From sequence record OQ349392.1: a stretch of DNA of 64,000 nt, one strand, 5' to 3'. Every line of letters starts with the position of its first letter. Within the stretch, counting starts at the first letter, position 1. Below the pieces are notes generated by a model that was given only the letters and a program-made list of their open reading frames with translations, made no database searches and was not told the origin of the DNA. Below, piece after piece: positions 5,576 to 17,061 of the stretch. The stretch is from Escherichia phage KIT06. Made by a program: the position numbers and the translations under genes.

Positions 5576-6153
5576 AAGCGAGTACAGTACTTCAAATTGC
5601 ATATTTAGTATCACAAGAATCCAAATGTTGCTCCTGGAAGGTAGGAGCAGTAATTGAAAAGAATGGACGTATTATTTCTACTGGATATAACGGTTCTCCG
5701 GCAGGTGGTGTGAATTGCTGTGATTATGCTGCCGAGCAAGGTTGGTTGTTGAATAAACCTAAACATACTATCATTCAAGGTCATAAGCCCGAATGTGTAT
5801 CATTTAGTTCAACTGAACGTTTTGTCTTAGCGAAAGAACACCGTAGTGCTCACTCTGAATGGTCGTCTAAAAATGAAATTCACGCTGAACTAAATGCAAT
5901 TTTGTTTGCTGCACGAAATGGTTCTTCAATTGAAGGCGCTACTATGTATGTAACACTTTCTCCTTGCCCAGATTGTGCAAAAGCAATAGCTCAATCTGGA
6001 ATTAAAAAGTTGGTTTATTGTGAAACGTACGATAAAAATAAACCTGGCTGGGATGATATTCTGCGAAATGCGGGTATTGAAGTGTTTAATGTTCCTAAGA
6101 AAAACTTGAATAAGTTAAACTGGGAAAATATCAACGAATTCTGCGGTGAATAA
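5572..6153 (+). CDS. cd: dCMP deaminase, 193 aa
   Basis: Zinc-binding cytidine/dCMP deaminase motifs HAELNAI and PCPDCAKAI; length and position as in T4. Confidence 0.9.
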   Translation: MKASTVLQIAYLVSQESKCCSWKVGAVIEKNGRIISTGYNGSPAGGVNCCDYAAEQGWLLNKPKHTIIQGHKPECVSFSSTERFVLAKEHRSAHSEWSSKNEIHAELNAILFAARNGSSIEGATMYVTLSPCPDCAKAIAQSGIKKLVYCETYDKNKPGWDDILRNAGIEVFNVPKKNLNKLNWENINEFCGE

Positions 6154-6389
6154 TGAAATTTCGTTTGGTACAACTCACAGCAATTAGTTCTTATTCTAAT
6201 GAGAACATTTCATTTGCTGTAGAGTATAAGAAGCATTTTTTCTCTAAATGGAAGCAGTATTATAAGTCAAACTGGGTTTGTATTGATAATCCACATAGTT
6301 GGAAATCTGATTTAGAAAAATGCCAAAAATTGCTTTCCACTCTTAAAGAACGTGGAACAACTCATATTAAAACTGTGATAGGTAAATAA
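6153..6389 (+). CDS. Hypothetical protein (31.2 position), 78 aa
   Basis: ORF track; coupled to cd stop. Confidence 0.6.
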   Translation: MKFRLVQLTAISSYSNENISFAVEYKKHFFSKWKQYYKSNWVCIDNPHSWKSDLEKCQKLLSTLKERGTTHIKTVIGK

Positions 6390-6698
6390 ATGAAACTGAC
6401 GACTGAACAGAAAGTAGCAATTCGTGAAATTTTGAAAACTAAATTGTCCATGGGTATTTCAAACGTAGTTTTTGAAAAGTCTGATGGTACTATTCGTACT
6501 ATGAAAGGCACTCGTGATGCAGACTTTATGCCAACCATGCAAACCGGTAAATTGACTGAATCGACTCGGAAAGAATCTACTGATATGATTCCAGTATTTG
6601 ATGTTGAGCTTGGTGCATGGCGAGGTTTTTCTATTGACAAATTGATTTCCGTTAATGGTATGAAAGTTGAGCATTTGCTTCAATTTATTGGTAAATAA
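6390..6698 (+). CDS. Hypothetical protein (31.1 position), 102 aa
   Basis: ORF track. Confidence 0.6.
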   Translation: MKLTTEQKVAIREILKTKLSMGISNVVFEKSDGTIRTMKGTRDADFMPTMQTGKLTESTRKESTDMIPVFDVELGAWRGFSIDKLISVNGMKVEHLLQFIGK

Positions 6699-8060: not shown

Positions 8061-8064
8061 GTTG

Positions 8065-8094
8065 AGGACTCCTTCGGGAGTCCTTTTTTATTTT
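8065..8094 (+). terminator. Intrinsic terminator: 8-bp stem AGGACTCC-TTCG-GGAGTCCT plus TTTTTTATTTT
   Basis: Perfect stem, UUCG tetraloop, long T-run immediately after the 58-aa ORF stop. Confidence 0.65.
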
Positions 8095-8170: not shown

Positions 8171-8503
8171 ATGAAAACGATTAATCTGAACGCTACAGTT
8201 AAAACTAAATGCTTCAATGGTAAATATGATGAAACTATGTGGTTCTTAATGGCAGTTGAAGGTGATATTATTGAAGTAGAAACAACAGAAGGTATGGGAA
8301 CAGATTTCACCTTTACAATTCAAGTTCATAATTTCTTTACTGGTTGGATTTATGAATTGAATACAGTAATCGTTGGAAAAATTGAACAAAATGAATTGGG
8401 TGAATGGTATTATGTTACAGCTCGCCAGCGTGCCGAACGCTTAATTGAGAAGATGAAAAAAGTTGGTAAACTTGACATGCAGCACTGGAAAGTAGTAAAA
8501 TAA
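8171..8503 (+). CDS. Hypothetical protein, 110 aa
   Basis: ORF track; GGAGAATAAAATG ribosome-binding context; early-promoter-like element upstream. Confidence 0.65.
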   Translation: MKTINLNATVKTKCFNGKYDETMWFLMAVEGDIIEVETTEGMGTDFTFTIQVHNFFTGWIYELNTVIVGKIEQNELGEWYYVTARQRAERLIEKMKKVGKLDMQHWKVVK

Positions 8504-8977: not shown

Positions 8978-9265
8978 ATGTTTATGACTACTTATTTTGA
9001 TACCCGTAAAAACTTCTGTGAAGTAGTTTTCTCTAAGGCGCCTAAAGACCTTCCTGCTCATTTGCAACCTACCAGTGAATCAATTAAAAACTACGTTAAT
9101 GTAGTCTGCCCTTTAGAGTTTCGTACTGTAAATGGGCGTGATACTCTAGCTATCACTAAACTTAATCGTGAAATTGACATTGACCCTTCAATTGCGCGTG
9201 AAATTAACATTTCTGATATTGGCGGCGGTAATGTTAAATCGCATGGTTTTCAGATGAGGTTCTAA
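8978..9265 (+). CDS. Hypothetical protein, 95 aa
   Basis: ORF track 8927..9265 starts at TTG inside a hairpin; trimmed to ATG at 8978 preceded by GAGGA. Confidence 0.6.
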   Translation: MFMTTYFDTRKNFCEVVFSKAPKDLPAHLQPTSESIKNYVNVVCPLEFRTVNGRDTLAITKLNREIDIDPSIAREINISDIGGGNVKSHGFQMRF

Positions 9266-9462: not shown

Positions 9463-9665
9463 ATATAATTAATAAGATTTTTGGAATTCAGTACATTAAG
9501 GTCACATATAAAGTAACGTATAAAGGTCCGTATACCGATGAACATGAAGAGCCGCAAGTTAAGTCTATTATATTAGAAAAGGACCCTAACTGGCCAATTG
9601 AATTTCGTCTTCCTTGCTATGGTCATTGGGCTGATGTTGAAATTATAAGTATTGAAAATGTCTGA
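9459..9665 (+). CDS. Hypothetical protein, 68 aa
   Basis: ORF track; ATGA overlap with upstream gene. Confidence 0.55.
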   Translation: MNIINKIFGIQYIKVTYKVTYKGPYTDEHEEPQVKSIILEKDPNWPIEFRLPCYGHWADVEIISIENV

Positions 9666-10116
9666 GTTAGAGATTAGAAGCAATTTTAGATGGCCATCAT
9701 GTGCATTAAGTAATTTCGCCCAATGGCCTTTTGTTATGGATGGTATCCAATTTGGAGGTCTCGAAGGATTCCTCCAAGGATGCAAGGTGAAAAATGTTGA
9801 ACAACAGCGTCGTATATTTGGGTTATCCGGGCTTGCCGCCCAACAAGCTGGAAGGTCTTATGCAAGAGCTCAGGACCATGGCACGTTGTTCTGGCTTGGA
9901 ACTCCGTTTTCAAGATATTCCGAAGCATGGAAAGAATTATACACAAATGCATATTTTGAAGCCGCGATCCAAAACAAGGGGTTTCGTGATGCCTTACAAG
10001 CCTCTAAAGGAAAAATTTTGAAGCACAGCATGGCTAGCGGTCTAACAAAAGATGATACAATACTAACCGAAGCTGAATTTATTGATGTGTTAAACCTATT
10101 AAGAGACTCTCTATGA
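9658..10116 (+). CDS. NADAR/YbiA-like (DUF1768-type) protein, 152 aa (30.3 position)
   Basis: ORF track 9652..10116 starts at TTG; ATG at 9658. Segment ALSNFAQWPFVMDGIQFGGLEGFLQGCK resembles the remembered YbiA/NADAR core (SNFxxWP...DG...F...E..FQ..K). Family assignment is from memory of the motif only. Confidence 0.6.
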   Translation: MSELEIRSNFRWPSCALSNFAQWPFVMDGIQFGGLEGFLQGCKVKNVEQQRRIFGLSGLAAQQAGRSYARAQDHGTLFWLGTPFSRYSEAWKELYTNAYFEAAIQNKGFRDALQASKGKILKHSMASGLTKDDTILTEAEFIDVLNLLRDSL

Positions 10117-10943
10117 AGCCAACTATTTTGACTGATATTGATGGAGTATGTTTAAGCTGGCAATCAGGCCTTCCTTATTTTGCTCAGAAATATAATCTTC
10201 CGTTAGAACATATTTTAAAAATGATCCAAGATGAGAAATTTATTTCTCCAGGTAAACTCTTTAATTGTGACGAAGAACTTGGCGTCAAGTTAATTGAAAA
10301 ATACAATCGTTCAGATTTTATTCGTTACTTGTCTCCGTATAAAGATGCCCTGTGTGTAATTAACAAATTAAAAGAAGATTATAATTTTGTAGCTGTTACA
10401 GCATTGGGTGATTCTATTGACGCTCTGTTGAATCGTCAATTTAATTTGAATGCTCTTTTTCCTGGTGCTTTCTCGGAAGTAATGATGTGTGGTCATGATT
10501 CTTCAAAAGAAGAGCTGTTCAAAAAGGCAAAAGAGAAATATAACGTAATTTGTTATATTGACGATCTCGCTCATCACTGCGATCATGCGAGTGAAATATT
10601 AAATGTTCCTGTTTATTGGATGGCTCGAGGGGAGCGTGATAATATTCCAAAAACTGCTCAGCGAGTTTATACATGGAATGATGTAGAAAATAAGCTTTTT
10701 TCGCCGAAGGAAAATAAAGAAAGTTTTGATAGTGAAAAAGCTATAAAAGATTTAATTGAGAAGATGGTTAAAAACGATTCTTTTCCTTGGAACACTACCT
10801 GGAGAACGCCTGGATTAAATCCTTATAATCATCCATATCAGACACATCCGTTTCAGACATGGAACTATATTAAACCTGGTGGCATAGAGTATTTGTATAA
10901 TAGACCTACTAGTGGTGATAATATTTTTCAAGGAGCATTCTAA
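10113..10943 (+). CDS. HAD-superfamily-like hydrolase, possible nucleotidase, 276 aa (30.2 position)
   Basis: N-terminal ILTDIDGV (HAD motif I DxDGx), later VAVTA and YIDDLAHH consistent with HAD motifs II and IV. Confidence 0.65.
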   Translation: MKPTILTDIDGVCLSWQSGLPYFAQKYNLPLEHILKMIQDEKFISPGKLFNCDEELGVKLIEKYNRSDFIRYLSPYKDALCVINKLKEDYNFVAVTALGDSIDALLNRQFNLNALFPGAFSEVMMCGHDSSKEELFKKAKEKYNVICYIDDLAHHCDHASEILNVPVYWMARGERDNIPKTAQRVYTWNDVENKLFSPKENKESFDSEKAIKDLIEKMVKNDSFPWNTTWRTPGLNPYNHPYQTHPFQTWNYIKPGGIEYLYNRPTSGDNIFQGAF

Positions 10944-11209
10944 TGTTTGTTGTTCATACTATTTATGAAAATGAAGGTAATACTACACGTGATTACGGTC
11001 ACGTAAATCAATTTTTTAGATGCAATCCAGAATTCCGTGCTCAAAAAGACGAACGAATTTTTAAAAAATGTGTAGAACAAGGTTTCATTTACGTCAAGCA
11101 CTGGATGCAAGGAAATAAAGTTAGAACTACATATCATAAGTCTTTGCCTGAGCTTAATGATGAATTGATTTATAATAGAGCTGTAAACCAAACCTTGAAG
11201 GATGAATAA
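10943..11209 (+). CDS. Hypothetical protein, 88 aa (30.1 position)
   Basis: ORF track; AAGGAG SD; stop overlaps ligase start. Confidence 0.6.
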   Translation: MFVVHTIYENEGNTTRDYGHVNQFFRCNPEFRAQKDERIFKKCVEQGFIYVKHWMQGNKVRTTYHKSLPELNDELIYNRAVNQTLKDE

Positions 11210-12669
11210 TGATTCTTAAAATTCTGAATGAAATAGCATCTATTGGTTCAACTAAGCAGAAGCAAGCAATTCTTGAAAAGAATAAAGATAATGAATTGCT
11301 TAAACGAGTATATCGTCTGACTTATTCTCGTGGGTTACAGTATTATATCAAGAAATGGCCTAAACCTGGTATTGCTACCCAGAGTTTTGGAATGCTGACT
11401 ATTACCGATATGCTTGACTTCATTGAATTCACGTTAGCTACTCGGAAATTAACTGGCAATGCAGCAATTGAGGAATTAACTGGATATATCACCGATGGTA
11501 AAAAGGATGATGTTGAAGTTTTGCGTCGAGTTATGATGCGAGACCTTGAATGCGGTGCTTCAGTATCTATTGCAAACAAAGTTTGGCCAGGTTTAATTCC
11601 TGAACAACCTCAAATGCTGGCAAGTTCTTATGATGAAAAAGGCATTAGTAAGAATATCAAGTTTCCAGCTTTTGCGCAGTTAAAAGCAGATGGAGCTCGG
11701 TGTTTTGCTGAAGTCCGAGGTGATGAATTAGATGATGTTCGTCTTTTATCACGAGCTGGCAATGAATACCTAGGATTAGATCTTCTTAAGGAAGAGTTAA
11801 TCAAAATGACTGCTGAAGCCCGCCAGATTCATCCAGAAGGTGTGTTAATTGATGGCGAATTGGTATACCATGAGCAAGTTGAAAAGGAACCAGAAGGCCT
11901 AGATTTTCTTTTTGATGCTCCTGAAATCAGTAAAGCTAAAGAATTCGCCGAAGTAGCTGAATCACGTACTGCTTCTAATGGAATCGCCAATAAATCTTTA
12001 AAGGGAACTATTTCAGAAAAAGAAGCCAAATGTATGAAGTTTCAGGTCTGGGATTATGTTCCGTTGGTAGAAATATACGGTCTTCCGGCGTTTCGTTTAA
12101 AATATGATGTACGTTTTTCTAAACTAGAACAAATGACATCAGGATATGATAAAGTAATTTTAATTGAAAACCAAGTAGTAAATAACCTAGATGAAGCTAA
12201 GGTAATTTATAAAAAATATATTGACCAAGGTCTTGAAGGTATTATTCTCAAAAATACCGATGGATTGTGGGAAAATGCTCGTTCAAAAAATCTCTATAAA
12301 TTTAAAGAAGTAATTGATGTTGATTTAAAAATTGTAGGAATTTATCCTCACCGTAAAGACCCTACTAAAGCAGGTGGATTTATTCTTGAGTCAGAGTGTG
12401 GAAAAATTAAAGTAAATGCTGGTTCAGGCTTAAAAGATAAAGCCGGTGTAAAATCACATGAACTTGACCGTACTCGCATTATGGAAAACCAAAATTATTA
12501 TATTGGAAAAATTCTAGAGTGCGAATGCAACGGTTGGCTAAAATCTGATGGCCGCACTGATTACGTAAAATTATTTCTTCCAATTGCGATTCGTTTGCGT
12601 GAAGATAAAACAAAAGCTAATACATTCGAGGATGTATTTGGTGATTTTCATGAGGTAACTGGTCTATGA
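11209..12669 (+). CDS. 30: ATP-dependent DNA ligase, 486 aa
   Basis: Adenylation motif KADGAR; MILKILNEIASIGSTKQKQAILEKNKDNELL matches remembered T4 gp30. Confidence 0.95.
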   Translation: MILKILNEIASIGSTKQKQAILEKNKDNELLKRVYRLTYSRGLQYYIKKWPKPGIATQSFGMLTITDMLDFIEFTLATRKLTGNAAIEELTGYITDGKKDDVEVLRRVMMRDLECGASVSIANKVWPGLIPEQPQMLASSYDEKGISKNIKFPAFAQLKADGARCFAEVRGDELDDVRLLSRAGNEYLGLDLLKEELIKMTAEARQIHPEGVLIDGELVYHEQVEKEPEGLDFLFDAPEISKAKEFAEVAESRTASNGIANKSLKGTISEKEAKCMKFQVWDYVPLVEIYGLPAFRLKYDVRFSKLEQMTSGYDKVILIENQVVNNLDEAKVIYKKYIDQGLEGIILKNTDGLWENARSKNLYKFKEVIDVDLKIVGIYPHRKDPTKAGGFILESECGKIKVNAGSGLKDKAGVKSHELDRTRIMENQNYYIGKILECECNGWLKSDGRTDYVKLFLPIAIRLREDKTKANTFEDVFGDFHEVTGL

Positions 12670-12854
12670 AAGCTTACTTAGAAACAATTGTCATTGCTCA
12701 AAAAGAAGGTGGAGATGTTTCTACTTCTGTATCACAAGTCATTCTCGAATTTGTAGATGCATATGCTTATAATAAATTTACAGAAACATTTGATGCCTAC
12801 GAAAAAGGTCCAAAGTTTGAAATATATCGTACTCTCTTACCATTAGATTATTAA
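12666..12854 (+). CDS. Hypothetical protein, 62 aa
   Basis: ORF track; coupled to ligase stop; followed by hairpin terminator. Confidence 0.55.
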   Translation: MKAYLETIVIAQKEGGDVSTSVSQVILEFVDAYAYNKFTETFDAYEKGPKFEIYRTLLPLDY

Positions 12855-12903: not shown

Positions 12904-15000
12904 ATGATGGAACTCATTACAGAATTATTTGACGAAGATACTACTCTTCCGATTACAAACTTAAATCCAAAGAAGAAAATACCGCAAATTTTTTCAGTTC
13001 ATGTTGATGACGCAATTGAACAACCAGGCTTTCGTTTATGTACCTATACATCTGGAGGTGATACTAACCGTGATCTAAAGATGGGCGATAAAATGATGCA
13101 CATTGTTCCTTTTACATTAACTGCTAAAGGTTCAATTGCTAAATTGAAAGGTCTCGGTCCAAGCCCAATTAATTACATCAATTCAGTTTTTACTGTTGCG
13201 ATGCAAACGATGCGTCAGTATAAAATTGATGCCTGCATGCTTCGTATTCTTAAGTCTAAAACTGCCGGTCAAGCTCGACAAATTCAAGTTATTGCTGATA
13301 GACTTATCCGTAGTCGTTCGGGTGGCAGATACGTCCTTCTTAAGGAACTCTGGGATTACGATAAAAAGTACGCATATATTCTTATACATCGCAAAAATGT
13401 ATCACTAGAAGACATTCCAGGAGTTCCGGAAATTAGTACCGAGCTCTTTACTAAAGTTGAATCGAAAGTCGGCGATGTTTATATCAATAAAGATACTGGA
13501 GCTCAAGTAACTAAAAATGAGGCAATTGCTGCATCTATTGCGCAAGAAAATGATAAGCGTTCTGACCAAGCTGTAATCGTTAAAGTTAAAATTTCCCGTA
13601 GAGCAATTGCGCAAAGTCAGTCATTGGAATCTTCTAGATTTGAAAGCGAATTATTCCAGAAATATGAATCTACCGCAGCTAATTTCAATAAACCCGCTAC
13701 AGCTCCTTTAATTCCCGAAGCAGAAGAAATGAAGCTTGGAATTAATTCATTAGCTTCTAAAACTAAGGCAGCAAAAATTATTGCTGAAGGAACTGCAGAT
13801 GAACTTCACTATGACTATAAATTCTTTTCAAAAAGTGAGGTTAATGAAGTTTCTGAAAAAATTAAAGACGTAATTCTTAATGCGATTAAAAATGAACCAA
13901 CTACTTCAATAAAATGTTTAGAGAAGTATGCAGCAGCTATTAATAAATTCTTTGAAGAATATAAAGATACTTGGCTTGATAAACATAATAAAACCCGTAA
14001 AGGACAGCCAGATGAAGTCTGGGAAGAAATAACTAAAAATTCCTGGAACGCAGCAAAAACTAAATTCCTCAAACGAATGATTTATAGCTTTTCTGGAATT
14101 GGTGCAGGTCCAATGATTGATATTACTATTGCCCGTGATGGTTCTAAATATACTCCATCACAAAAGCGCGGCATTAGAGAATATTGTGGTTCAGGATATA
14201 CTGACATCAATAATCTTCTTTTAGGACGCTACAATCCAGAACGATATGATGTAATGAGTGAAAAAGAAATTGAATCTGCGATAAATAATTTAGATTCAGC
14301 CTTTGAAAATGGTGACCGTATACCAGAAGGCATTACAGTTTATCGTGCTCAAAGTATGACTGCTCCTATATACGAAGCGCTAGTTAAAAATAAAGTGTTC
14401 TATTTCAGAAATTTTGTATCTACTTCTTTAACTCCTATCATTTTTGGACGTTTTGGAATTACACATGCTGGTATCGGTCTTTTAGAACCAGAAGCTCGTA
14501 ATGAATTAACAGTTGATAAAAATGAAGAAGGAATAACTATTAATCCGAACGAAATAAGAGCGTATAAAGAAAATCCTGAATACGTTAAAGTTCAAATAGG
14601 ATGGGCAATTGATGGAGCTCATAAAGTTAATGTTGTATATCCAGGGAGTCTCGGAATAGCAACAGAAGCTGAAGTAATTCTACCACGCGGATTGATGGTC
14701 AAAGTTAATAAAATAACTGATGCTTCTAATAATGACGGAACAACATCTAATAACACAAAACTCATTCAAGCTGAAGTTATGACTACGGAAGAACTCACCG
14801 AATCAGTAATTTATGACGGTGACCGTCTAATGGAAACTGGTGAAGTAGTTGCAATGACAGATGATATTGAAATAGAAGACAGAGTTGACTTTGCATCATT
14901 TGTTTCATCAAATGTTAAACAGAAAGCAGAATCATCTCTCGGAATTATTGCGTCTTGCATAGATATTACAAACATGCCTTACAAGTTCGTTCAAGGATAA
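12904..15000 (+). CDS. alt: Alt-family mono-ADP-ribosyltransferase (head-packaged), 698 aa
   Basis: N-terminus MELITELFD (LxE-type prohead-protease site); R-S-E ADP-ribosyltransferase triad context (YRAQS, FVSTSLTP, ATEAEVILPRG); late promoter TATAAATA about 25 bp upstream. May start at the second ATG (12907). Confidence 0.85.
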   Translation: MMELITELFDEDTTLPITNLNPKKKIPQIFSVHVDDAIEQPGFRLCTYTSGGDTNRDLKMGDKMMHIVPFTLTAKGSIAKLKGLGPSPINYINSVFTVAMQTMRQYKIDACMLRILKSKTAGQARQIQVIADRLIRSRSGGRYVLLKELWDYDKKYAYILIHRKNVSLEDIPGVPEISTELFTKVESKVGDVYINKDTGAQVTKNEAIAASIAQENDKRSDQAVIVKVKISRRAIAQSQSLESSRFESELFQKYESTAANFNKPATAPLIPEAEEMKLGINSLASKTKAAKIIAEGTADELHYDYKFFSKSEVNEVSEKIKDVILNAIKNEPTTSIKCLEKYAAAINKFFEEYKDTWLDKHNKTRKGQPDEVWEEITKNSWNAAKTKFLKRMIYSFSGIGAGPMIDITIARDGSKYTPSQKRGIREYCGSGYTDINNLLLGRYNPERYDVMSEKEIESAINNLDSAFENGDRIPEGITVYRAQSMTAPIYEALVKNKVFYFRNFVSTSLTPIIFGRFGITHAGIGLLEPEARNELTVDKNEEGITINPNEIRAYKENPEYVKVQIGWAIDGAHKVNVVYPGSLGIATEAEVILPRGLMVKVNKITDASNNDGTTSNNTKLIQAEVMTTEELTESVIYDGDRLMETGEVVAMTDDIEIEDRVDFASFVSSNVKQKAESSLGIIASCIDITNMPYKFVQG

Positions 15001-15003
15001 ATC

Positions 15004-17061
15004 ATGGAACTTATTACAGAATTATTTGACGGCGCTTCGGCGCCGGTTGTTAACTTAAATCCTAAGCATAAAATACCTCAAATTTTTGCTATTCAAGCCG
15101 GCGAAGAAAGTGTGCTTCCTGGATTTAGATTTTGTACATACACCTCTGGCGGTGATACAAATAAAAACGTTAAGCCAGGCGATAAAATGATGCATATCGT
15201 AATGATAGGTGTTAATGAGAAACTATCATTAGTTAAACTTAAAAACTTGGGTGGAAATCCAATTGGTGTCATTAATGCAGTTTTTGATACTGCTCTTCAA
15301 ACAATGAAACAGTATAAAATTGACGCATGCTTATTCCGCGTACTAAAGAGTAAAACAAATGGCGCTGCTCGTCAAATGCAAGTTATTGCCGACCGTTTAG
15401 TACGTACTAAAGGAGCAGGTCGATATGTTCTTTTAAAGGAAATCTGGGACTATGATAAGAAATATGCATATATTATGGTTTACCGTAAAAATGCCAATTT
15501 AGAAGACATTCCAGGTGTACCTCCTATTTCAACTGAGTTATTCACAAAAGTTGAATCAAAGGTTGGTGATGTTTATGTAGATGTTAAAACAGGTAATGCT
15601 GTTCCTAAAGCTGTTGCTGTTGCTGCTTCTATTGCTTTAGAAAATGATAAGCGTACGGATCAAGCTGTTATTCAGAAAACTAAAATTAGCCGTCGATTAG
15701 CAGCTCAGGCTCAATATTCTACTGTCGATGCTTCACTTCAGGGTGATAGCTTCGCTGCTAAGAAATATCAAGAGTTTGAATCTAAAGTTCCGGTATATAA
15801 AGCAGAAGGACCAATGAACTCTGGCGTTATTCAGGTTGGTTCAAACTTCAGTAAAGGAGCTATCGGTGGTATGAGAAGTGCTTCTCGTTTTAAATCTAGT
15901 GATTATGAACTAGAAAGCTTCAGAAATCATATTGCATTGGCTCATGCACGTTTACGTGATCCATCTATCAAGTTACAGAGCGATATAACATATCAAGGTT
16001 CTCAGGAATATTTAAAGAATAAAGAATTTTTTGATTATAAAACTGATAAAATTTTAAGCGATCTCGCTGACATTAATATTTCTAATAGCTTTGATGTTAT
16101 TAAGAAAATTATCAATGATTTAGTTAAAGGTTCTAAAGCCACGCCAGATGAAAAGGTAGCTATTGTTCAATTTGTCATGAATGGCATTTATAAATTGATT
16201 AATGAGTCTGCTTCTCAAGCGTATGAATATGCAAGTACTGAAGTACCCCCAAAAGGATTAACTCGGGCTGAGTCTGATGTAATTGAAGATTATTGCGCAG
16301 ATTCATATGTTGAAATGAACTCGTTCCTTTTAGGTAAACCAGATTCTACTCGTGAAGAATACATGGAACGAGCTATTAAACACATCGAGACAATGGATTC
16401 TGCCTTTGCCAAAGGATCAGTTCTTCCTCCAGGAACTACGCTTTATCGTGGACAAGAAGTTACTTTTAAAACTTTACGCCATAATATTGAAAATAAAATG
16501 TTCTATTTCAAGAACTTCGTATCAACATCGCTTAAACCAAATATCTTCGGTGAGTATGGTAAAAACTATATGGCCCTAGATGATTCTGGTGCAGTATTTT
16601 CTGGTGAAGGAGAAGGTTCAGTTGATGCTGAAGATTTAATGCATATGGGCAGTCACTCTGCTTACGCGAATGAAGATGCTGAAACTAGCGTGGGTATGGT
16701 AATTAAAGGGGCTGAGCGAATCAAAGTTATCGTTCCAGGTCATTTATCAGGATTTCCATCAGAAGCTGAAGTTATTCTACCGCGCGGAATTTTACTGAAG
16801 ATTAATAAAGTAAGTACGTACTTTATGAAAGAAACTGCTTATAACAAGTATCTAATAGAAGGTACAATCGTTCCTCCTTCTGAACAATTAGAGGAATCGG
16901 TATATGATGGCGAGCATCTAATGGAAACTGGCGAAGTTCGTCCAATGGCTGGATTTAATCAATTCCTTGTAGAAGAATCAAAAGAAGAGGAAAACGAAGT
17001 TTCTCAAATCTTGGCTTCTTTGGTTAACATCAACGGAATGTCTAAAAAGTTCAAAATGTAG
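15004..17061 (+). CDS. Second Alt-family ADP-ribosyltransferase paralog, 685 aa
   Basis: Same N-terminal MELITELFD, conserved first ~230 aa, diverged middle, conserved ART motifs (YRGQE, FVSTSLKP, PSEAEVILPRG) and C-terminal ESVYDGEHLMETGEV; starts 3 nt after the first alt stop. Confidence 0.85.
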   Translation: MELITELFDGASAPVVNLNPKHKIPQIFAIQAGEESVLPGFRFCTYTSGGDTNKNVKPGDKMMHIVMIGVNEKLSLVKLKNLGGNPIGVINAVFDTALQTMKQYKIDACLFRVLKSKTNGAARQMQVIADRLVRTKGAGRYVLLKEIWDYDKKYAYIMVYRKNANLEDIPGVPPISTELFTKVESKVGDVYVDVKTGNAVPKAVAVAASIALENDKRTDQAVIQKTKISRRLAAQAQYSTVDASLQGDSFAAKKYQEFESKVPVYKAEGPMNSGVIQVGSNFSKGAIGGMRSASRFKSSDYELESFRNHIALAHARLRDPSIKLQSDITYQGSQEYLKNKEFFDYKTDKILSDLADINISNSFDVIKKIINDLVKGSKATPDEKVAIVQFVMNGIYKLINESASQAYEYASTEVPPKGLTRAESDVIEDYCADSYVEMNSFLLGKPDSTREEYMERAIKHIETMDSAFAKGSVLPPGTTLYRGQEVTFKTLRHNIENKMFYFKNFVSTSLKPNIFGEYGKNYMALDDSGAVFSGEGEGSVDAEDLMHMGSHSAYANEDAETSVGMVIKGAERIKVIVPGHLSGFPSEAEVILPRGILLKINKVSTYFMKETAYNKYLIEGTIVPPSEQLEESVYDGEHLMETGEVRPMAGFNQFLVEESKEEENEVSQILASLVNINGMSKKFKM

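Follow-up and report, generated by a model that had tools for sequence, protein, structure and literature searches.

Gene 30.3 in the phage KIT06 sequence

The sequence analyzed was a stretch of 64,000 nucleotides from Escherichia phage KIT06 (OQ349392.1), hereinafter the window, and the gene under study was the open reading frame (ORF) located at 9658..10116 on its + strand, the counterpart of T4 gene 30.3, also named adfN (anti-DarT factor NADAR), with a NADAR DNA ADP-ribosylglycohydrolase of the phage subfamily as its predicted product. The sequence corresponds to a T4-like phage of the genus Tequatrovirus, and the 2.3 kb surrounding the ORF are approximately 97% identical to those of many T4-like phages of Escherichia, Salmonella and Yersinia. 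The ORF runs from an ATG at 9658 to a TGA at 10114-10116 and encodes 152 amino acids, as an original prediction made from the nucleotide sequence had proposed. A TTG codon in the same frame, at 9652, would add two residues if used; the T4 annotation uses the same ATG as that at 9658.

The encoded protein and T4 gp30.3 (NP_049816) are of equal length and share 147 of their 152 residues (97%) in a gapless alignment. The five substitutions (R74H, V82T, P89E, V120I and I125M, relative to T4) all lie outside the catalytic motif. A Pfam scan rendered a match to PF08010 (Phage_30_3, "Bacteriophage protein GP30.3") with an E value of 9.5e-69 and a score of 230 bits (cut-off, 36) over the whole profile (1-138 of 138), and only the unnamed family phrog_652 was matched in PHROGs. 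At the nucleotide level, 29 differences were observed between the window gene and that of T4, 21 of them synonymous and 8 non-synonymous in the main frame. The changes are mostly synonymous, and this frame is therefore under protein-level selection. Taken with the PF08010 match and the existence of phage homologues, this bias identifies 9658..10116 as a conserved gene rather than a frame open by chance.

The order of the genes is that of T4 (31, rIII, 30.9 ... 30.4, 30.3, 30.2, 30.1, 30, alt.1, alt), with the ligase gene, 30, at 11209..12669. The start of 30.3 lies within the end of gene 30.4, whose stop codon occupies 9663-9665, forming a ATGTCTGA overlap (9658..9665, +) that suggests translational coupling. 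For its part, the stop codon of 30.3 (10114-10116) overlaps the start of 30.2 (10113-10115) in an ATGA (10113..10116, +). Both overlaps are common to the window and T4. Judging from near identity and from synteny between 30.4 and 30.2, the window ORF is to be regarded as the orthologue of T4 30.3.

Relationship to the NADAR superfamily

The original prediction had assigned the protein to the YbiA/NADAR family. When the window protein was compared with Pfam by hmmscan, no match to PF08719 (NADAR/DUF1768) was obtained even at E values of up to 10, and only PF08010 was reported. Pfam thus places the protein in a separate family, below the PF08719 threshold. A total of 102 homologues were collected, and the 74 full-length ones, down to approximately 35% identity, were aligned (alignment A1). 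Thirteen of these 74 family members matched PF08719 individually (best E value, 1.5e-7), and several bona fide YbiA-type proteins matched PF08010 in return. When the A1 profile was compared with 177,635 sequences of solved structures, the top match was Escherichia coli YbiA (2b3w), with an E value of 0.0074, and it spanned the SNF...E..Q..K motif. When 40 YbiA-family proteins were aligned (A2) and compared with A1, profile to profile, by hhalign, a probability of 97.1% (E value, 5.3e-11) was obtained over 124 columns.

These results agreed with the predicted structure. Modeling of the window protein by AlphaFold2 with A1 yielded a confident model (pLDDT, 93.6; pTM, 0.89) with a NADAR fold, to which YbiA is a close fold match. 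Hence, the assignment made in the original prediction stood on transitive, profile-profile and fold evidence, whereas the direct match to PF08719 on which it could have been checked was not obtained. Profiles and model together place the window protein in the NADAR superfamily, through a remote but solid homology.

Catalytic residues and C-terminal helix

The motif quoted in the original prediction, ALSNFAQWPFVMDGIQFGGLEGFLQGCK, corresponds to residues 16-43 of the protein (9703..9786, +) and aligns to FSNFAAWPIKVDGKTWPTSEHYFQAQKF of YbiA. This conserved NADAR core includes the E-x6-K motif that contacts ADP-ribose, formed here by E36 and K43. The catalytic glutamate E36 (codon GAA, 9763..9765, +) aligned to E48 of YbiA and was invariant in A1, as were A16, L17, S18, N19, F20, F25, G37, F38 and Q40 among the 74 members, while the catalytic lysine K43 (codon AAG, 9784..9786, +) aligned to K55 of YbiA and was conserved in at least 90% of them. 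In T4 AdfN, the E36A mutant loses activity and K43A is impaired (PMC11825919), and the roles of the Glu and Lys of this motif are also known by mutagenesis in other NADARs (PMC11543638).

A residue of the last β-strand separates the NADAR subfamilies: YbiA-type proteins have Glu there, DarT1-associated ones (BC4488 and DarG1) have Asp, and those of the phage gp30.3 type have His (PMC11125620, PMC11543638). The window protein carries the marker of the phage subfamily, H123 (codon CAC, 10024..10026, +), which was invariant in the 74 members and follows the last β-strand of the model (residues 120-122). hhalign placed H123 opposite H126 of YbiA, with a gap opposite E125, which is one position off from the equivalence given in the literature. 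Following the literature, we take H123 as the phage-type state of the last-strand catalytic position. The three residues, whose loss would have spoken against the enzymatic role initially proposed, are thus present and conserved.

The carboxyl terminus is of relevance because a frameshift in RB69 removes the last 15 residues of the 30.3 product, and this phage is sensitive to DarTG1 (PMC11825919). In the window protein, residues 126-152 are identical to those of T4 gp30.3, and the model shows, with high confidence, an intact α-helix at residues 138-151 (10069..10110, +). The C-terminal helix that the inactive allele of RB69 lacks is thus intact here.

Proposed function of the window protein

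Work published between 2022 and 2025 has already described the gene and its family, together with the enzymology and the counterdefense role of the product. Iyer et al. (2022) noted that NADAR genes of T4-like phages are expressed early, together with ADP-ribosyltransferases (PMC9503650). Schuller et al. (2023) described that NADARs hydrolyze the guanine-N2-ADP-ribose made by DarT1, and that phage NADARs are the His variant (PMC11543638). In 2024, a gp30.3-type NADAR of an E. coli phage was found to strip ADP-ribose from guanine but not from thymine in vitro, although it failed to rescue cells from DarT1 (Toxins; PMC11125620); this enzyme is T4 gp30.3 according to PMC11825919. Johannesman et al. 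(2025, Nat Commun) mapped 30.3, which they renamed adfN, as the source of DarTG1 resistance in T2 and T4, and reported that the gene is necessary and sufficient for resistance in T-even phages, that AdfN de-ADP-ribosylates DNA, and that a C-terminal truncation impairs it (PMC11825919). Finally, in a transposon screen of 2025, T4 insertions in 30.3 were lost specifically on DarTG1 hosts (bioRxiv 10.1101/2025.11.20.689424).

In view of all this, the window ORF is very probably the Tequatrovirus copy of 30.3/adfN, encoding a stand-alone N-glycohydrolase with a NADAR fold that takes ADP-ribose off guanine in phage DNA and thus permits escape from DarTG1. According to this model, host DarT1 would modify guanine in single-stranded phage DNA with ADP-ribose at its N2 amino group, blocking replication, and AdfN, a small protein presumably made early in infection from the window allele as well, would cut the bond between ribose and guanine, releasing ADP-ribose and restoring the base. 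A phage equipped with AdfN would then replicate on DarTG1 hosts, the protein being in effect a phage-borne orphan antitoxin of the DarG1 kind. The reversal of host ADP-ribosylation of phage DNA, one of the roles initially put forward for the ORF, is supported by the activity of the 97%-identical T4 protein against guanine-ADP-ribose and against DarTG1 (PMC11825919, PMC11125620). The identity with T4 gp30.3, the NADAR fold, the remote homology, and the intact catalytic residues and C-terminal helix were all observed in the window protein itself. Its guanine-ADP-ribose glycohydrolase activity, its specificity for guanine and its counterdefense phenotype would follow from the experiments carried out with the T4 orthologue, and its five non-catalytic substitutions are expected to be neutral, so that the allele would behave like T4 AdfN.

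Several observations weigh against this interpretation. On its own, the window protein gives no match to Pfam NADAR, NCBIfam, PADLOC or, by phmmer, the sequences of solved structures, and therefore its assignment to the family depends on comparisons of profiles and folds. The expression and activity of the window allele, with its five substitutions, would in turn be those of T4 by analogy. Furthermore, T4 AdfN fails to protect uninfected E. coli against DarT1 and is of little help to phages other than the T-even ones (PMC11825919, PMC11125620), which limits how far the model accounts for its action inside the cell.

The main alternative is that the protein mainly degrades NAD metabolites or soluble signals derived from ADP-ribose, among them the cyclic ADP-ribose variants of host immunity, and is not mainly a DNA repair enzyme. 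Prior to the biochemical work, genomic context had led to this role being predicted for phage NADARs in general (PMC9503650), and it would fit early expression beside the NAD-using Alt enzymes. We consider it very unlikely, given that, in vitro, the 97%-identical T4 enzyme takes ADP-ribose off guanine in DNA and that T4 becomes specifically sensitive to DarTG1 when it is lost. Moreover, no activity on soluble substrates is reported in the literature, and the distant homologues stand alone, with no conserved NAD-salvage neighbors in the loci read.

An even less probable role, to which we give hardly any credence, would be to temper the ADP-ribosyltransferases of the phage itself (the two Alt paralogues, ModA and ModB), undoing the self-inflicted or off-target ADP-ribosylation of nucleic acids or proteins. 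It would accord with the position of 30.3, since two intact alt genes transcribed in the same direction lie approximately 2.8 kb downstream of it, and the T-even infection context needed by T4 AdfN leaves room for a phage-specific function. However, every NADAR tested acts on guanine-ADP-ribose, and the target of Alt is arginine in proteins. Coexpression of T4-like NADARs with ADP-ribosyltransferases has been noted (PMC9503650), but deletion of adfN has no reported phenotype when DarTG1 is absent (PMC11825919, bioRxiv 10.1101/2025.11.20.689424), and no ADP-ribosyltransferase lies near the distant 30.3 homologues in the loci examined.

As for a housekeeping N-glycosidase of the YbiA type acting on intermediates of the riboflavin pathway, it has practically no chance of being the correct explanation: among the solved structures, YbiA ranks first in the profile search and its fold matches closely, and some databases label relatives "N-glycosidase YbiA" or "ribA/ribD-fused", but identity to YbiA is only about 20 to 24%, the gp30.3 family carries His where the YbiA type carries its diagnostic Glu, and the gene is phage specific, with a demonstrated anti-DarT phenotype.

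Returning to escape from DarTG1 as the function of AdfN, the T4 protein is active in vitro and fully effective only during T-even infection (PMC11825919, PMC11125620). Because of this, and because two intact Alt genes lie just downstream, a second phage-specific role or a partner was considered for the AdfN of T-even phages, which we regard as unlikely. A T-even protein might bring AdfN to phage DNA under replication, or AdfN might also clean guanine ADP-ribosylation made by the phage's own transferases.

Genes surrounding 30.3

The context of the ORF was as described in the original prediction (a 30.x cluster with a ligase and two Alt enzymes nearby). Two full-length genes encoding Alt-type ADP-ribosyltransferases lie in tandem on the + strand, at 12904..15000 and 15004..17061; both products match PF03496 and are 41% identical to one another. 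The first gene is the orthologue of T4 alt (70% identity). The second is the intact form of a gene left in T4 as the remnants alt.-1 and alt.-2 only, with 95 to 98% identity over the first 116 residues. Between the ligase gene and alt, the small ORF alt.1 (12666..12854, +) yielded a Pfam match to PF24647, "Phage blade protein" (E value, 1.9e-29); the T4 annotation of its product is conserved hypothetical protein.

Downstream of 30.3, gene 30.2 (10113..10943, +) encodes a 276-amino-acid protein, 97% identical to its T4 counterpart, with an N-terminal DIDGV motif typical of phosphatases of the HAD superfamily. It matched only phrog_420, plus a weak match (E value, 0.002) to a polynucleotide kinase PHROG that reflects resemblance to the phosphatase domain; neither Pfam, NCBIfam nor PADLOC rendered a match, and none of significance was found among the sequences of solved structures. 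Some GenBank records label gp30.2 "phosphatase". Given its HAD-like nature and its ATGA coupling to 30.3, gene 30.2 was considered as a conserved partner of AdfN that could account for its dependence on T-even infection. It was rejected, since tblastn of gp30.2 found no match at three distant loci of the 30.3 family in the 6 kb flanking each side, and the 254-amino-acid gene that follows the 30.3 homologue in one of them (L002) is unrelated. The DarTG1 transposon screen makes no mention of 30.2 (bioRxiv 10.1101/2025.11.20.689424).

The three distant loci, located in large metagenomic phage contigs, had no neighbors in common with one another or with the window; for instance, the 91-amino-acid ORFs upstream of the homologues in L002 and L008 are not related. 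Thus, the phage-family NADAR behaves as a free-standing module. In L002 to L004 (metagenomic contigs of up to 308 kb, apparently from jumbo phages), the 30.3-family gene, 39% identical and located near 6001-6468, has a NUDIX hydrolase gene and a Thg1-like gene within approximately 4 kb and an AAA ATPase gene upstream. NUDIX and NADAR enzymes both process ADP-ribose, a putative link between the two at this locus.

A scan for promoters and terminators between 6500 and 13000 gave numbers of sites not above the shuffled expectation, and hence it yields only a candidate upstream promoter. The best sigma-70-like site, with 11 of 12 matches (TTGACA, an 18-nucleotide spacer and TAAAAT; 8472..8501, +), lies just upstream of 30.7, and it is preceded by a strong terminator-like hairpin with a T run (8064..8085, +). 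From 30.7 to 30 the genes overlap or follow one another closely, with a single weak terminator-like site between them (9225-9242, with a stem of 5 pairs). With this candidate promoter, adfN and the ligase gene would share an early operon.

In T4, an overlapping ORF of 75 amino acids, 30.3', has been annotated within 30.3 in the +1 frame. It is also open in the window (9794..10021, +). Its product is 79% identical to the T4 copy, compared to 97% for the main frame. Within its span, the substitutions were 5 synonymous and 16 non-synonymous when read in the 30.3' frame, versus 14 and 7, respectively, in that of 30.3. The 30.3' frame was therefore rejected as an alternative gene: the ORF is present, but its substitution pattern reveals no protein-level constraint, so 30.3' is probably not a real gene.

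Distribution and practical value

A 30.3 homologue was encoded in 1,510 of 50,697 phage records, with 601 at 95 to 99% identity, and the hosts included Escherichia, Klebsiella, Aeromonas, Acinetobacter and Vibrio, among others. Nearly all of these 1,510 records annotate the product as "hypothetical protein". Several database proteins (P0008, P0014, P0015, P0016, P0052 and P0101) are shortened 30.3 products of T4-like phages, 83 to 154 amino acids long and covering 26 to 72% of the query, and some shortened products also match other Pfam families (PF11097, PF06919, PF06019 and PF26911). The shortened or fused products suggest that the 30.x cluster has undergone deletions or rearrangements, which would leave AdfN inactive as happens in RB69.

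The scientific gain of these results is small, and their practical value lies in the correction of annotations, since the NADAR link of 30.3 is invisible to a plain Pfam, NCBIfam or PADLOC scan, and in the use of the gene to predict resistance to DarTG1. Phages with an intact allele, like that of the window, are expected to resist hosts carrying DarTG1, while those with truncated or fused alleles (RB69 and several database fragments) are expected to be sensitive, which is relevant to the choice of T4-like phages for therapy or biocontrol.

Comparison with known systems

The closest known relative is T4 gp30.3, AdfN (PF08010), which occupies the same genomic slot and has the same overlaps with 30.4 and 30.2, catalytic residues and C-terminal helix as the window protein. 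The antitoxin NADARs of DarG1 type (BC4488 subfamily, including those of G. lovleyi, 8bat, and E. coli C7) are encoded in DarT1-NADAR operons, have Asp at the diagnostic position and span approximately 190 to 220 amino acids, whereas the window protein is an orphan of 152 amino acids with His123. No DarT partner was found beside 30.3, whose neighbors are 30.4 and 30.2, and no PADLOC match was obtained. AdfN works like DarG1, but it is an orphan and not a component of the DarTG1 toxin-antitoxin system; T4 AdfN cannot substitute for DarG1 in uninfected cells (PMC11825919, PMC11125620).

E. coli YbiA (PF08719; 2b3w) and the Phytophthora NADAR (8bau) are approximately 20% identical to the window protein. 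The last-strand residue of the YbiA type is Glu instead of His, and the biological roles proposed for YbiA differ from those of AdfN. Finally, the other anti-DarT factors of T-even phages, AdfA (gp61.2) and AdfM (the Tk.4 macrodomain), follow the same counter-DarTG logic as AdfN with unrelated sequences: AdfA binds DarT1 rather than repairing DNA (PMC11825919), and AdfM is a macrodomain that acts against the thymine-modifying DarTG2 (bioRxiv 10.1101/2025.11.20.689424).
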